The notes under the pieces: model-generated | Seen by the model: the letters and a program-made list of their open reading frames with translations, nothing else | The model's database searches: none | Told to the model about the DNA's origin: nothing | Position numbers and translations under genes: made by a program | Part shown: in pieces, positions 3,759-62,658 of the stretch | How the letters are laid out: each line of letters begins with the position of its first letter | Position numbering within the stretch: position 1 is the stretch's first letter | From: Parcubacteria group bacterium Gr01-1014_8 | GTDB taxonomy: Bacteria > Patescibacteriota > Minisyncoccia > Phycocordibacterales > UBA2100 | NCBI GenBank assembly: GCA_007376385.1 | Contig: VMGC01000002.1 | Span: 32,001-96,000 of the forward strand | Direction: 5' to 3' | DNA: 64,000 nucleotides

Positions 3759-3832
3759 GCCTGGATAGCTCAGGTAGTCAGAGCATTCCCCTGAAGAGGG
3801 AAGGGTGGTCAGTGCAAGTCTGACTCCAGGCA
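3759..3832 (+). tRNA. tRNA-Phe (anticodon GAA), with a non-canonical T-loop TGCAAGT
   Basis: Acceptor GCCTGGA/TCCAGGC, D-stem GCTC/GAGC, anticodon arm TTCCC-CTGAAGA-GGGAA, T-stem GTCAG/CTGAC; G at position 55 is unusual. Confidence 0.6.
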
Positions 3833-3836
3833 CAAT

Positions 3837-25912: not shown

Positions 25913-26020
25913 ATACCCCGTGAGATATGTATAAAAAAGGCATCTTAACTAGCTGATTATTCATTTGAATTTATAGATTGTGATGAGAAATTTGGAGTGT
26001 ACCTATCTCATGGGGTATAC
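25913..26020 (+). promoter_or_regulatory. Inverted box pair ATACCCCGTGAGATA ... TATCTCATGGGGTATAC around a 76-nt spacer, about 25 nt upstream of the 26045 start
   Basis: Family member; arms pair G:U as RNA. Confidence 0.55.
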
Positions 26021-28988: not shown

Positions 28989-29096
28989 GTTGACCCCGTG
29001 AGATAAACATGGTGACGTTCGAGTCGAACATGTGGTTTTGTTGTGGCTCTCAAGCACCGCCTAACAATAAGGAATGGGTTATCTCACGGGGTTGAC
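28989..29096 (+). promoter_or_regulatory. Inverted box pair GTTGACCCCGTGAGATAA ... TTATCTCACGGGGTTGAC (18-nt perfect inverted repeat, 72-nt spacer) in the ftsA-ftsZ intergenic region
   Basis: Family member with extended arms. Confidence 0.55.
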
Positions 29097-42743: not shown

Positions 42744-44042
42744 ATGACCAAACTTTCATTTTTTCAGATAGTCGTACTCTCATCCTTCGGTGCTCTCGCG
42801 ATCGCGGGCGTAATGATATTTGCGTTCGTGGTCGGCGGCTCCGGAGGCGAGGGCATAGGAGAAGTGAAAATTTGGGGCACGCTGGACGCTGGCGCATTTG
42901 CAACGATACTCCGTCAGCTTGCGGAAGAGGACACTCGCATGAAAGCTGTAACGTATACCCAGAAAGATCAATCAACCTTCGATCGGGATGTGACCAATGC
43001 GCTCGCGTCCGGTGCGGGGCCTGACCTGTTCGTTCTCCGCAGTGATTTCGCAGAAAAGGAGGCAGCGAAGGTGTCGGCAATACCGTATGCGCTATTTTCG
43101 GAAGAACAATTTCAAAATACGTTCATCGAAGCGGCGAACGTATACATGGGTCCGGAAGGAGTGCGCGCCGTTCCGCTTGTTGTGGACCCGCTCGTACTCT
43201 ACTGGAATCGCGACATGCTGGCCTCATCGGGCTTTGCGAAACCGCCCGTGTTTTGGGACGAGTTGTTCGACATGGCGACAAAAATGACCAAAAAAGACGA
43301 TACGAATTCCATCATAAAGAGTACCATCGCGCTCGGTGAACATCAGAACGTGGATCATGCGAAAGAGATACTCTCGCTTCTCATCATGCAAGCTCAAGGC
43401 CGCATCACGCAAAGAGATGGTACGGGGAAATTGCAGACGGCGCTTGTGGCGCGCGCAGGAGATGTACAGCAGCCGACAGAATCGGCGCTCCGGTACTACA
43501 CTGAATTTGCGAACCCTATCAAAGCGCACTACACATGGAATCGCGCACTTCGAGAGAGCCGTTCAGCGTTCGCATCGGGAGATCTCGCACTTTATATAGG
43601 CCTCGCAAGCGAGGAGCCGTTGGTACGCCGCATCAATCCGAATTTGAACTTCGCTATTGCGCCAGTGCCGCAGATACGGGGCGGTGCTCGGAGCTTGAAT
43701 GTGGGACACGTATACGCATTTGCCGTACCAAAAGCGGCCAAGAATCTGCAAGGCGCTCTCACGGTTGCCTATACTCTTGCATCAATGGATACGTCAAAAC
43801 TATTCTCTAAGGCTCTTGGCATGCCTTCTGCAAGGAGAGATGTTCTTGCGGAGCCTGCGACGGGCAATGATGATCTTTTCAACAAGCAAGCCATCCTTGC
43901 GAGAGCGTGGGTAGACCCGGACCCGGAAAAAACTGATGTTATATTTAGAGACATGATACAGAGTGTCACCAGCGGCTCTGCGCGTCTCGGCGAAGCGATA
44001 CAGAGGGCGGATAAGACGATGAGCGACCTTCTCAGCATATGA
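42744..44042 (+). CDS. Membrane-anchored extracellular solute-binding protein (ABC substrate-binding, family 1-like)
   Basis: N-terminal TM helix then a periplasmic binding fold of about 400 aa. Confidence 0.55.
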   Translation: MTKLSFFQIVVLSSFGALAIAGVMIFAFVVGGSGGEGIGEVKIWGTLDAGAFATILRQLAEEDTRMKAVTYTQKDQSTFDRDVTNALASGAGPDLFVLRSDFAEKEAAKVSAIPYALFSEEQFQNTFIEAANVYMGPEGVRAVPLVVDPLVLYWNRDMLASSGFAKPPVFWDELFDMATKMTKKDDTNSIIKSTIALGEHQNVDHAKEILSLLIMQAQGRITQRDGTGKLQTALVARAGDVQQPTESALRYYTEFANPIKAHYTWNRALRESRSAFASGDLALYIGLASEEPLVRRINPNLNFAIAPVPQIRGGARSLNVGHVYAFAVPKAAKNLQGALTVAYTLASMDTSKLFSKALGMPSARRDVLAEPATGNDDLFNKQAILARAWVDPDPEKTDVIFRDMIQSVTSGSARLGEAIQRADKTMSDLLSI

Positions 44043-44144
44043 CCCCATGAGAGAAATACTTTCGATATACCTATGAACATGATTGAACAGATCTACATGT
44101 GGGAGACAACAAAACATTCAAGCAGTCTCTCTCACGGGGTATGA
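44043..44144 (+). promoter_or_regulatory. Variant box pair TATGACCCCATGAGAGAAAT ... TCTCTCACGGGGTATG. The 5-prime box overlaps the TGA stop of 42744..44042 and the 3-prime box abuts the ATG of 44141..44488
   Basis: Same arrangement as between infB and rbfA (50709-50814). Confidence 0.55.
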
Positions 44145-50710: not shown

Positions 50711-50814
50711 ACCCCGTGAGAGAAACTATCTAAAGCTACTAAGCTTGGTCGCATGCTGTTGGAAAGGATTGATTTCATATATATTTTAAAGAATATTCTC
50801 TCATGGGGTCATAC
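50709..50814 (-). promoter_or_regulatory. Variant box pair bridging the infB stop and the rbfA start (on the minus strand: TGACCCCATGAGAGAATAT ... TTTCTCTCACGGGGT-ATG)
   Basis: One arm overlaps the infB TGA, the other abuts the rbfA ATG; 14-bp potential RNA stem. Confidence 0.55.
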
Positions 50815-52351: not shown

Positions 52352-52455
52352 ATACCCCATGAGATAAAAAACTCATAGCCCAGTGATATAGGGTATTTGT
52401 CAAATCAAAATTCGTCGCGCAAAAAGTGTCAAGCGATCTATCTCACGGGGTATAC
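52352..52455 (+). promoter_or_regulatory. Inverted box pair ATACCCCATGAGATA ... TATCTCACGGGGTATAC (72-nt spacer) between divergent infB and the cysteine desulfurase gene
   Basis: Family member. Confidence 0.55.
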
Positions 52456-53715: not shown

Positions 53716-53860
53716 ACTTGTGTCTGGTTTCGCGGGAGCAATTTTAAGTGATGTTTCAGCGTGCGCTTAAAGAGCAATTGATGTATGAATGAAGCACAAA
53801 GGCGAAACGAAAAATGCCAAAGTTAGTGCTCGGACGTTGCAAAATCTCGTCCATGATACT

Positions 53861-54069
53861 CTACCCCGTGAGATAAAGTCATTCGGTGTATGTGGAGGTG
53901 ATGTTGCTTGGTGACTAATATCGAACGCGGCTCATAACTTTTCGCCATATCTCATGGGGTCTACCCCGTGAGATAACTGTTCGTCTTTTGTTTCGAATTG
54001 TAGTTCATGTATCCATAGTACAATGTCGGTAATGAGACATCTATACACCTCCTATCTCATGGGGTATAT
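53861..54069 (+). promoter_or_regulatory. Two tandem inverted box pairs: CTACCCCGTGAGATAA ... ATATCTCATGGGGT|CTACCCCGTGAGATAAC ... TATCTCATGGGGTATAT, ending 13 nt before the 54083 start
   Basis: The central 29-nt near-perfect palindrome is formed by abutting boxes. Confidence 0.55.
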
Positions 54070-54082
54070 ATAGAAGAAAGCT

Positions 54083-54943
54083 ATGGATATAGAAAGACTC
54101 AACAAATCTCAAATAGTTCTCCTGACGCTTTTGGTGAGCTTTGTTACCTCCATCGCAACGGGCATTGTCACCGTTTCCCTGATGGACCAGGCGCCTCCTT
54201 CCATCGCACAGACGGTGAATAGGGTTGTCGAAAGGACAGTCGAAAAAATGGTCCCATCCGGCCAGGCGGCAAGCGCGGCGGTTACTACAGAGAAAACGGT
54301 GGTAGTGAAGGAGTCTGATCTCATCGTAAGGGCGGTTGAATCCATATCACCATCTGTCGTTCGCCTCTATGCGACTGGGTTGGATGCCCCGGGCGACAAT
54401 GATAAAGAGGTCTTTCTGGGGCTTGGCGTCATTATTGCTGAAAGTGGGACCATCGTGACAGACGCTGCAGTGTTGCCCGCAAGCGGCTCTGTGGAGATCG
54501 CGCTCAGCACAGGGACGCGTATCCCAGTCTCCTTCGTATCAAGTGACGCTCTGAGCGGCATCGCGCTTCTTCAAGGTGCGACGTCAACCGCAGAGGGACC
54601 TGTATCCTGGAAGGCGGCTACGCTCTCGGCAGACAAGCCTGCTCTTGGGACGTCTGTTATCGCTATTTCCGGGCGCGGGGCAACGCGAATTGCCGACGGC
54701 ATTATAACGGCTCTTCCTGCCGCCGAGGCCAAAGACGAAGAGGCGATACTCGAAACCAGCATACCGTCCTCATCTATCGCATACGGAAGCCCGCTGGTGA
54801 ATTCGAGCGGAGAGATAGAGGGAATAAGTACGGGAGCGAGCCGCCTTGTGTCTGAGGGTTCGTTTCTGGCATCACTTTCTGTCATAATGTATACTACAAA
54901 AACAAAAGCGGCAGACGAAGACGAGAAAGCCGAACAGCAGTAA
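54083..54943 (+). CDS. Membrane-anchored trypsin-like (S1/HtrA-like) peptidase-domain protein with an atypical Ser motif (AYGSPLVN)
   Basis: N-terminal TM, GLGVIIAESGTIVTDA and C-terminal GSPLVNSSGEIEGI; catalytic His and Asp not confidently placed. Confidence 0.5.
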   Translation: MDIERLNKSQIVLLTLLVSFVTSIATGIVTVSLMDQAPPSIAQTVNRVVERTVEKMVPSGQAASAAVTTEKTVVVKESDLIVRAVESISPSVVRLYATGLDAPGDNDKEVFLGLGVIIAESGTIVTDAAVLPASGSVEIALSTGTRIPVSFVSSDALSGIALLQGATSTAEGPVSWKAATLSADKPALGTSVIAISGRGATRIADGIITALPAAEAKDEEAILETSIPSSSIAYGSPLVNSSGEIEGISTGASRLVSEGSFLASLSVIMYTTKTKAADEDEKAEQQ

Positions 54944-62521: not shown

Positions 62522-62608
62522 CCCCATTAGAGAAGGATCATTTCCTTCCAGCTTGTTCTGCGTATTCGCTCTTCAAAAATTGATCGAAATAGGACCAAAG
62601 CATTCTCT
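62522..62608 (+). promoter_or_regulatory. Inverted box pair variant ATTGACCCCATTAGAGAA ... CTCTAACGGGGTTGAC, about 50 nt upstream of rpmG
   Basis: Diverged family member. Confidence 0.45.
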
Positions 62609-62658
62609 AACGGGGTTGACCTAGAGCCGCTATTTGGCTATAGTGCGCCCGAATCGAT

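Follow-up and report, generated by a model that had tools for sequence, protein, structure and literature searches.

Two cassettes upstream of the protease gene

The DNA analyzed here (the window) is a 64,000 nt stretch of the genome of Parcubacteria group bacterium Gr01-1014_8 (contig VMGC01000002.1, positions 32,001 to 96,000), in which a gene for a trypsin-like protease lies between those for an aminotransferase and ClpB. The spacer upstream of the protease gene contains four short boxes, two of sequence CCCCGTGAGATA and two of TATCTCATGGGG, which had been noticed in a sequence-only reading and were found at the same positions on re-inspection. Drawn as far as 54069, as in that reading, the last box indeed stops 13 nt short of the ATG at 54083. 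The boxes are the arms of two cassettes, numbered 7 and 8 (Table 1), and the two inner boxes abut as TATCTCATGGGG-TCTA-CCCCGTGAGATA. The near-palindrome described at this junction is real as regards the abutting boxes, but its length of 29 nt was approximate, the structure being 12+4+12, in which one position is a G.T non-complement and the centre lacks self-complementarity. The whole arrangement is identical in two other assemblies of the same genome, L131 (Logan) and L136 (ENA), and is therefore not an assembly artefact.

A tandem duplication of the whole cassette had also been proposed. The interiors of cassettes 7 and 8 agree at only about one-third of the columns of an optimised alignment, so the pair did not arise in this way, and blastn-short finds no match between them; the flanks, TCTA-[c7]-TCTA-[c8]-TATA, fit two insertions. 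For the interior of cassette 7, no second copy was found in the window or among 137 cassettes, and its predicted structure does not rise above that of shuffled sequences.

Table 1. Window coordinates of the cassettes and of the features around the protease gene start (L132 and L134 are related genomes described in the text).
Feature	Position	Strand	Remarks
Cassette between tsaD and ABC-transporter gene	9988..10082	-	TATA...TATA; ATG 12 nt after arm
Cassette	25916..26015	+	TATA...TATA
Cassette between ftsA and ftsZ	28994..29091	.	TTGA...TTGA; arms fully complementary
Cassette, GAGAGA/TCTCTC arms	44043..44139	-	5-bp repeat TATGA
Cassette, GAGAGA/TCTCTC arms	50712..50808	+	5-bp repeat TCATA
Cassette between IF-2 and cysteine-desulfurase-like genes	52355..52450	-	TATA...TATA; empty in L132 and L134
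Ancestral protease-gene spacer, upstream half (TTGCAA...GATAC)	53837..53859	+	aligns with L132 ttgcaaaaagcacgtGATAC
TCTA, left copy of cassette 7 target duplication	53860..53863	.	single TATA in the L132 empty site
Cassette 7	53864..53959		96 bp
Cassette 7 left arm (CCCCGTGAGATA)	53864..53875	+	
Cassette 7 interior	53876..53947	+	72 nt, 46% GC, unique
Cassette 7 right arm (TATCTCATGGGG)	53948..53959	+	one G.T with left arm on + strand
Shared TCTA	53960..53963	.	right duplication of cassette 7, left flank of cassette 8, centre of near-palindrome
Cassette 8	53964..54064		101 bp
Cassette 8 left arm (CCCCGTGAGATA)	53964..53975	+	
Cassette 8 interior	53976..54052	+	77 nt, 38% GC, unique, unrelated to cassette 7 interior
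Cassette 8 right arm (TATCTCATGGGG)	54053..54064	+	
TATA, right target-duplication copy	54065..54068	.	followed by TATAGAAGAAAGCT and ATG; matches L132 TATA-TATAGAAGAAGCTATG
Protease gene	54083..54943	+	trypsin-like (S1C, HtrA-like, without PDZ domain); Pfam Trypsin_2, E = 2e-12
Cassette, TTAGAGA/TCTCTAA arms	62522..62615	-	TTGA...TTGA

Filled and empty sites in relatives

The closest relative available, L132, encodes a protease that is 78% identical and keeps the order aminotransferase, protease, ClpB, with only 20 nt between the first two genes; the start of the protein (MDIE..) is retained in relatives. In L132, ttgcaaaaagcacgtGATAC stands directly before TATATATAGAAGAAGCTATG, and the site reads ...ttgcaaaaagcacgtGATAC-TATA-TATAGAAGAAGCTATGG, as compared with ...ttgcaaaatctcgtccatGATAC-TCTA-[53864-53959]-TCTA-[53964-54064]-TATA-TATAGAAGAAAGCTATGG in the window, or, in brief, GATAC-TATA-TATAG..ATG versus GATAC-TCTA-[c7]-TCTA-[c8]-TATA-TATAG..ATG. 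The site between the IF-2 and aminotransferase genes is GGACGAG-TATA-CGCCAAAAGG in L132 and GGAG-TATA-CGCC in L134, and GGGCGAG-TATA-[52355-52450]-TATA-CGCCCAAAAG in the window. Both loci are empty in L132, and L134 supplies a second empty site at the IF-2/aminotransferase locus. Each empty site holds one 4-mer, and the window has exactly one extra T-N-N-A per insertion. The cassettes are transposon-like insertions with a 4-bp target duplication. The suggestion that the boxes reflect the expansion of a mobile element is thus borne out by the duplications, by the empty sites in the closest relatives, and by the recurrence of the same ends in at least 117 stretches of other genomes. In the simplest history of the protease site, cassette 8 would have inserted first, at TATA; a T-to-C change in the left TATA copy would have followed, and cassette 7 would then have inserted at the resulting TCTA.

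The boxes had alternatively been seen as multimerised binding sites of a regulator. As host devices controlling the protease gene, they would be operator half-sites or the stem of a 5'-leader RNA, and such a role is suggested by the distance from the last box to the ATG (13-18 nt) and by a G.T pair that keeps the stem only on the protease sense strand in both cassettes. However, the site is not conserved in the orthologous promoter of any relative examined, the protease spacer being without boxes in all seven (L109, L118-L120, L132, L134 and L135), and an operator array was rejected on these grounds. Intergenic spaces of all three kinds (tandem, convergent and divergent) contain boxes; they adjoin unrelated housekeeping genes, are present at 3' ends and between convergent genes, and lie within decayed genes, namely GIY-YIG genes; their orientation relative to the flanking genes is mixed, and the same 12-mer is present in more than 12 phyla together with target duplications. 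We therefore regard a primary regulatory function as extremely improbable, and it could survive as a secondary effect only. The binding-site reading and the tandem-duplication reading were both wrong.

Other cassettes of the same genome

When the window was searched with a 14-mer box motif (up to three mismatches), 22 matches were found, as against 2.86 +/- 1.59 in shuffled sequences, where the largest count was 8 and none of 100 shuffles reached 22. Eighteen of the 22 pair into nine units, each consisting of a reverse box, 70-77 nt and a forward box, and a tenth cassette lies on the same contig, 7.5 kb past the window, so that ten are present in 79 kb of this genome. They share arms of 12-14 bp and nothing else. 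Each is bordered by a direct repeat of 4-5 bp and of T-N-N-A type, the two copies of which are non-identical at two cassettes. Both 5-bp repeats contain a stop codon, TATGA that of the upstream solute-binding-protein gene and TCATA that of the IF-2 gene (- strand). All of the window units are intergenic and adjoin housekeeping genes, among them those for IF-2, the class-V aminotransferase, the trypsin-like protease, ClpB, TsaD, an ABC transporter and FtsA/FtsZ.

The arms occur in three versions that co-vary within a unit, GAGATA/TATCTC, GAGAGA/TCTCTC and TTAGAGA/TCTCTAA, the last of which (cassette 62522..62615) is the commonest arm type in other phyla. Eight of the nine window units (9/10 in this genome) combine a CAC arm with a CAT arm, and the stem consequently has a G.T pair on one strand and A.C on the other. 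Among the nine oriented copies, the G.T strand is the + strand in four and the - strand in five, and no rule relating this orientation to the neighbouring genes was found.

The interiors are AT-rich (29-47% GC versus 49.5% for the window) and fold no better than shuffled sequences (z from -0.9 to +1.5). None of the 45 possible pairs among the ten cassettes have related interiors. The nine in the window have no second copy elsewhere in the window, which holds only chance 10-13-mers, and an origin of the interiors by copying from nearby DNA was rejected for this reason. Ten different copies with intact duplications agree with arrival from outside or with many small lineages, as families of up to about five copies would often yield ten unlike copies in an 8% sample of a genome of roughly 1 Mb (both figures being assumptions). 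They do not agree with a recent burst. Within the sampled 79 kb, no recent copying was seen.

The cassette family in other genomes

Species-representative genomes were scanned with a pattern of two arms separated by 55-85 nt, and the matches listed, in at least 117 stretches of genome, represent more than 12 phyla. These comprise Patescibacteria of many classes, Omnitrophota, Planctomycetota (Brocadia, Scalindua), Verrucomicrobiota, Cloacimonadota, Marinimicrobia, Nitrospirota, Elusimicrobia, Desulfobacterota, Bdellovibrionota, Actinomycetota, Gammaproteobacteria, Bacteroidota and WOR-3. Across them, conservation is limited to the arms and the flanking T..A. Just outside the arms, T-N-N-A is found on both sides (T in 98%, A in 94%, on the outward side), the two flanking 4-mers are identical in 76 of 142 cassettes, and their middle dinucleotide agrees in 77 of 142, where 13.2 +/- 3.3 would be expected. 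The search pattern had left two variable arm positions independent, and these are complementary in 130 and 132 of 134 cassettes; at a third variable position the pair is G:C in 87 and G:T or A:C in 47, and never A:T. Inside the arms, information content over about 135 cassettes stays below 0.1 bit at every position as far as 2 nt from the arm, and the last position reaches 0.27 bit. The covariation of the arms shows that the two ends depend on each other, while the interior is unconstrained.

Most interiors (108/137) are singletons. Where interiors are shared, they are shared mainly within genomes, as seen in 21 of 49 within-genome pairs (five other genomes) compared with 12 of 9359 between-genome pairs. 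One subfamily with a conserved interior is flanked by TTTA...TTTA in seven of its eight members, at least six of them at unrelated loci, and this 4-mer, which appears to be partly lineage-specific, would fit an intermediate that brings one copy of it along and requires a target to match. Two loci of one Saccharibacteria genome (L040 and L095) hold a dimer of two identical cassettes joined by TGTA; the outer flanks differ between the loci and form a TATA...TATA repeat at L095, and a TGTA-joined dimer between TATA repeats argues against a 4-mer-carrying intermediate.

Cassettes avoid genes, with 16 of 137 lying inside mechanically called ORFs (at least 120 aa), which cover 83% of all bases. Their surroundings are co-directional in 69 cases, convergent in 27 and divergent in 15. 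In 16 of the 137, including two in the window (44043 and 50712), the insertion coincides exactly with the stop codon of a gene of 100 aa or more, and the duplicated TGAA, TAAA, TAGA or TATGA thereby restores the stop. Nested insertions were also found: in L141 a cassette lies at a duplicated TTAA inside a GIY-YIG gene, and in L001 a cassette interrupts another GIY-YIG gene.

Several other origins were considered and rejected. A search of 2.9 million viral contigs gave no match to the cassette pattern, which speaks against phage origin. In the window, only tRNAs reach the gathering score of Rfam 15, and matches at the cassette region are at chance level (E = 0.7-0.9), so that, with interiors folding no better than shuffles, a structured RNA gene was discounted. 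Nor do the units resemble a CRISPR array, in which spacers would separate direct repeats that are complete at both ends, since they are bounded by inverted half-sites and are predominantly solitary.

Coding elements with a GIY-YIG nuclease gene

Coding versions of the element, of about 280 bp, carry one 86-aa GIY-YIG nuclease gene between the same arms. In six loci that had been picked by their arms alone, a small ORF lies beside arms or between them, and two such arms enclose it in L001, L085, L099, L121, L140 and L141. The left arm ends 6-8 nt before the ATG, which it overlaps in L085, and the right arm forms the last four codons, TCT CTA ACG GGG (S-L-T-G) or TAT CTA ACG GGG (Y-L-T-G). The flanking 4-mer (TGA-A or TAA-A) supplies the stop codon with its first three bases in four of the six; in L121 the stop comes directly after the arm, and in L085 the frame runs on into the next hairpin. 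A clean direct repeat, TGAA...TGAA, is present in one of the six (L140). Where a coding element and ORF-less cassettes occur in one locus, they have the same arm subtype (5/5 loci).

The ORFs of L099 and L085 match Pfam PF01541 with E = 2.6e-15 and 3e-16, respectively, and the protein is a bare GIY-YIG domain without a DNA-binding domain. The nearest solved structure is that of UPF0213 protein BH0048 (1ZG2, E = 1.5e-6). A 2006 survey of the GIY-YIG superfamily classed standalone domains as Slx1-like and did not mention repeats (PMC1564403). The homologues, thousands of which come from metagenomes, form at least 2932 clusters at 90% identity and, at 50% identity, 1094 clusters with E <= 1e-10. 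Among the best 120 homologues, 76 are exactly 86 aa long and 79 end in ...FLSLTG, a C-terminus that was always encoded by TCT CTA ACG GGG/T in the DNA seen. The gene is typically wedged between housekeeping genes, for example in L121, where it begins 26 nt after bacA and ends 4 nt before folD. An all-against-all comparison of the 1096 ORFs within 400 nt of arms, in the at least 117 loci, found GIY-YIG to be the only ORF family common to four or more loci; no transposase or recombinase family recurs among them. A plasmid origin was rejected, as PLSDB contains no GIY-YIG homologue at E <= 1e-8.

The gene is absent from the 79 kb of this genome that were read, and tblastn detected no GIY-YIG remnant in the window. 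The cassette interiors were also scored with a PSSM built from the C-terminal 16 residues of the GIY-YIG protein, and no trace of the C-terminus was found (-44.6 in frame and -44.1 off frame, as against +60 for the true C-terminus). Since the scores are equal in and out of frame, derivation of the cassettes by deletions that left the 3' part of the gene was rejected. Non-coding cassettes and coding elements share only the arms.

Relationship to known elements

By structure, the cassettes are MITEs, except that similarity over the whole length among copies is missing in this genome (0/45 pairs); shared interiors do occur in five other genomes. Cassettes 7 and 8 are small (96 and 101 bp) and non-coding, with no conserved ORF or motif; they have terminal inverted repeats and a duplicated target, the relatives L132 and L134 have empty sites, and the same ends flank the 86-aa GIY-YIG gene of a candidate autonomous partner. 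A literature search on the arm sequences, GIY-YIG genes with inverted repeats, MITEs and Patescibacteria found no description of the family, with subscription journals mostly outside its scope.

The Correia elements of Neisseria are MITEs of about 100-150 bp that resemble the cassettes in being non-coding, in having terminal inverted repeats and a short T/A-type duplication, in their intergenic location, often right at gene starts or ends, in their many copies per genome, and in transcripts that can fold into a long stem. In contrast to those of Correia elements, the interiors are unrelated in this genome and only ends of 12-14 bp are shared; Correia elements belong to one genus, whereas the ends described here occur in more than 12 phyla, and Correia elements have a TA duplication and a DDE transposase rather than a T-N-N-A duplication and a candidate GIY-YIG gene. 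REP/REPIN-RAYT systems likewise comprise dispersed, short, palindromic two-armed units of about 100 bp with a freer spacer, and a small nuclease-type gene that is itself flanked by repeats. Each REP, however, is a hairpin with a GTAG head, while the arms here pair with each other and not with themselves; REPINs lack a target duplication, depend on the RAYT enzyme, an HUH (Y1) tyrosine transposase, and not on GIY-YIG, and have species-specific REP sequences. Members of the IS200/IS605 group are also very small, with a very small nuclease-type enzyme, folded single strands and strand asymmetry, but their ends are not mutual inverted repeats, they make no target duplication, they use an HUH transposase and they measure at least 600 bp.

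The catalytic domain (PF01541), which is found in the coding relatives and not in cassettes 7 and 8, is that of intron-encoded or free-standing GIY-YIG homing endonucleases (I-TevI, T4 Seg) and of standalone UPF0213 proteins, and homing genes are also selfish small genes wedged between housekeeping genes. Unlike these, the present family has no DNA-binding domain and no single homing site, its dispersed sites sharing only T-N-N-A, and it has inverted repeats, a target duplication and many ORF-less derivatives.

The cassette ends themselves, T-N-N-A|CCCC...GGGG|T-N-N-A, resemble those of elements with DDE transposases. PiggyBac elements have TTAA targets and CCC... ends, and IS1380/ISEcp1 elements have CC... 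ends and a 4-5 bp duplication; the T..A-type duplication of 4 bp, sometimes 5 bp, and the CC(C) ends of the cassettes resemble this IS1380/piggyBac type. The clean empty sites would agree with the precise excision known for piggyBac. The cassettes might then be ordinary MITEs mobilised in trans by an unsampled conventional transposase (IS1380/piggyBac-type DDE), with the GIY-YIG gene as a passenger or selfish coloniser, and the absence of this gene from 79 kb of the genome and the lack of any relation between it and the cassette interiors agree with such an arrangement. Yet piggyBac and IS1380 elements are 1.5-2.5 kb long, as against 30-290 bp here, and in about 800 kb of sequence around the at least 117 loci there is no arm pair enclosing an insertion-sequence-size unit of 1-2.5 kb, that is, no full-length insertion sequence with the same ends, nor was a DDE transposase found between or near the arms. 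The GIY-YIG family recurs near the arms, whereas no transposase-like ORF family does, and the right arm forms part of its reading frame, which terminates in the duplicated 4-mer, an arrangement common among the transposase genes of insertion sequences. We consider mobilisation by a DDE transposase unlikely.

A site-specific recombinase offers a further possibility, moving the cassettes by way of a small circular or folded single-stranded intermediate with T-N-N-A as a carried crossover region. Integron attC sites (57-141 bp) have conserved inverted ends and a variable centre and function as folded single strands, and the cassettes, with conserved ends and a free centre, recall these or elements that exploit Xer. 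The CAC/CAT arms, which give a G.T pair on one strand only, hint at a strand-specific folded form, the TTTA subfamily has a lineage-specific 4-mer, and the abutted ends form a 12+4+12 site resembling a recombinase core site. Against this, the GTTRRRY-like and RYYYAAC-like strings stand in the opposite order to those of attC (here GTTAGAT ... ATCTAAC), the interior does not form a stem (z about 0), whereas the centre of attC is paired with extrahelical bases, insertion produces a 4-bp duplication, there is no array, and no integrase or other recombinase recurring near the arms was found, so that an attC identity was dismissed. The L095 dimer, with its internal TGTA between TATA repeats, further indicates that the outer 4-mer changed with the target. 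A recombinase appears still less probable than a DDE transposase.

Proposed mechanism of mobilization

It is likely that the four boxes, as terminal inverted repeats, bound two insertions of about 100 bp that lie side by side and arose independently, MITE-like members of a GIY-YIG-associated family for which the nuclease is the inferred mobilising factor. An element consists of an arm of 12-14 bp, 70-77 nt of unconstrained, AT-rich filler and a complementary arm, and each insertion duplicated a T-N-N-A target of 4 bp, occasionally 5 bp. The 86-aa nuclease would make the breaks that move both coding and non-coding members, recognizing, as we favour, the stem formed by the two arms, which would bring both T-N-N-A borders together; recognition of the stem is preferred since a DNA-binding module is missing from the domain, and since the UPF0213 group of standalone domains, of which it is a member, has been placed with structure-specific nucleases of the Slx1 type. 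Cuts would fall at the T-N-N-A borders, and the one-sided G.T pair suggests that one strand, of DNA or RNA, may be the folded partner. A nuclease alone cannot join DNA. As a GIY-YIG nuclease does not ligate or transfer strands, joining would have to be completed by host repair or ligation functions, and we know of no GIY-YIG enzyme that acts as a transposase.

More tentatively, the element of about 280 bp with the 86-residue GIY-YIG domain as its sole product may be autonomous, moving itself and its derivatives of 30-110 bp; we think this possible, though somewhat short of an even chance. The enzyme would cut at T-N-N-A beside the 12-bp arm, perhaps on a folded stem, and the host would do the joining. 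Such an element would be smaller than any known insertion sequence, would depend on a nuclease class that is not known to drive DNA transposition in prokaryotes, and would represent a family spread over more than a dozen phyla, of which the cassettes at the protease gene would be two footprints. If the GIY-YIG nuclease does mobilise the cassettes, this would be a new and extremely compact way of moving DNA, and the protein a candidate for a cutter guided by structure or sequence; if it is not the mobilising enzyme, the family remains useful as a marker of horizontal exchange. The 12-bp end sequence is the mark of a mobile family that passes between very distant bacteria.

Probable consequences for the protease gene and for annotation

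The two insertions explain the odd length of the protease-gene spacer, which is now 368 bp, with all of the preceding sequence, the presumed former promoter and TTGCAA (53837-53842) included, standing 205 bp farther from the start codon. A TA-rich tract 14-18 nt before the protease ATG contains the target TATA, and in relatives this tract looks, from its sequence, like a -10 region near a near-leaderless start. A TATATA tract was left next to the right arm of cassette 8 after the insertions. Transcription would thus either initiate with the arm occupying the -35/spacer position or pass through two stems of 13-14 bp. As the upstream region has been split by two insertions, the gene is probably now transcribed from a rebuilt promoter or by read-through. 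An outward promoter carried by the element is not supported, since no conserved -35-like position was detected next to the arm in about 135 cassettes, and a consensus promoter scan of the region gave hits at the level of shuffled sequences and was uninformative. The family is also a source of annotation artefacts, as the arm-encoded peptides NPVRD, FTPLE, ISNGV and SLTG appear in called proteins.

Cassettes with conserved interiors and minimal hairpins

One subfamily of the MITE-like cassettes has a conserved interior, made up of a pair of GC-rich hairpins; the second of these looks like a junction of abutted arms. Its members come from several CPR classes, lie in unrelated loci in at least six of eight cases, and are nearly always flanked by TTTA...TTTA; Rfam returned no match for this subfamily. 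Three anammox MAGs of the Brocadiaceae share one cassette, interior included, at a locus that looks orthologous. Partial arm ends (GGGG...CCCC) lie outside the TTCA/TGAA of this cassette, which suggests that they are leftovers of adjacent units.

There are minimal hairpins of 30 nt, in which the cassette arms are separated by just 6-7 nt. They were found in one Deltaproteobacteria MAG and one Saccharibacteria MAG, with a loop consensus of YGAAGT. Those of L085 lie on either side of a GIY-YIG element (the coding version of the cassette) and a split RhuM-family gene. The window itself holds a solitary, degenerate forward box (right arm), with no partner box within 130 nt. The sequence just before it, ACCCGCAT, may be paired with ATGCGGT, and the box could be a decayed minimal hairpin.

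Coordinates of cassettes, hairpins and other features
Feature	Locus	Position	Remark
Conserved-interior subfamily	L019	4919-5017	
	L021	1496-1588	
	L032, L057, L073, L086, L093, L112		
Shared Brocadiaceae cassette	L008	5514-5613	
	L023	6964-7061	
	L037	2746-2845	
Minimal hairpins	L085	1051-1081, 1352-1381, 2387-2418, 2455-2485	
	L063	3439-3468	
Degenerate forward box	window	15581-15594	TATCTCATGCGGTT; - strand genes on both sides
TCATA repeat of cassettes	window	44038-44042, 50809-50813	
ftsA-ftsZ cassette	window	28994-29091	
TATAMT starts	window	10083-10097, 54065-54085	
	L109	1432-1446	
	several CPR loci		
tRNA-Phe	window	3759-3833	ARAGORN call

Cassettes at gene boundaries

Two window cassettes whose interiors are unrelated share the rare arm subtype GAGAGA/TCTCTC and a 5-bp repeat, which reads TCATA when the cassettes are oriented; each is placed exactly at the TGA stop codon of a gene. 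GAGAGA/TCTCTC arms also occur in L060, a Nomurabacteria stretch, there with TCATA/TCACA.

In many genes of the window's lineage, a TATAMT hexamer precedes the start codon, as in GGGG-TATACT-TGTCCA-ATG, and its first four bases are often the TATA duplication of the element. Because the hexamer is only 6-8 nt ahead of the start, leaderless or near-leaderless transcripts are suggested. The spacer between ftsA and ftsZ holds one cassette, presumably co-transcribed within the cell-division operon, and its RNA stem may therefore be tolerated or processed in the operon transcript.

Arm-encoded peptides and tRNA calls

Peptides encoded by the arms are present in eight called proteins (P0243, P0245, P0247, P0252, P0259, P0262, P0263 and P0265), the left arm giving NPVRD or FTPLD/E and the right arm ISNGV or SLTG. 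Within P0252, a GIY-YIG protein, an entire small cassette is translated in frame. These strings are annotation artefacts, and could be used as insertion markers.

At the tRNA-Phe called by ARAGORN, the Rfam tRNA model scored below its gathering score; the totals for the window are 11 tRNAs by ARAGORN versus 10 by Rfam.
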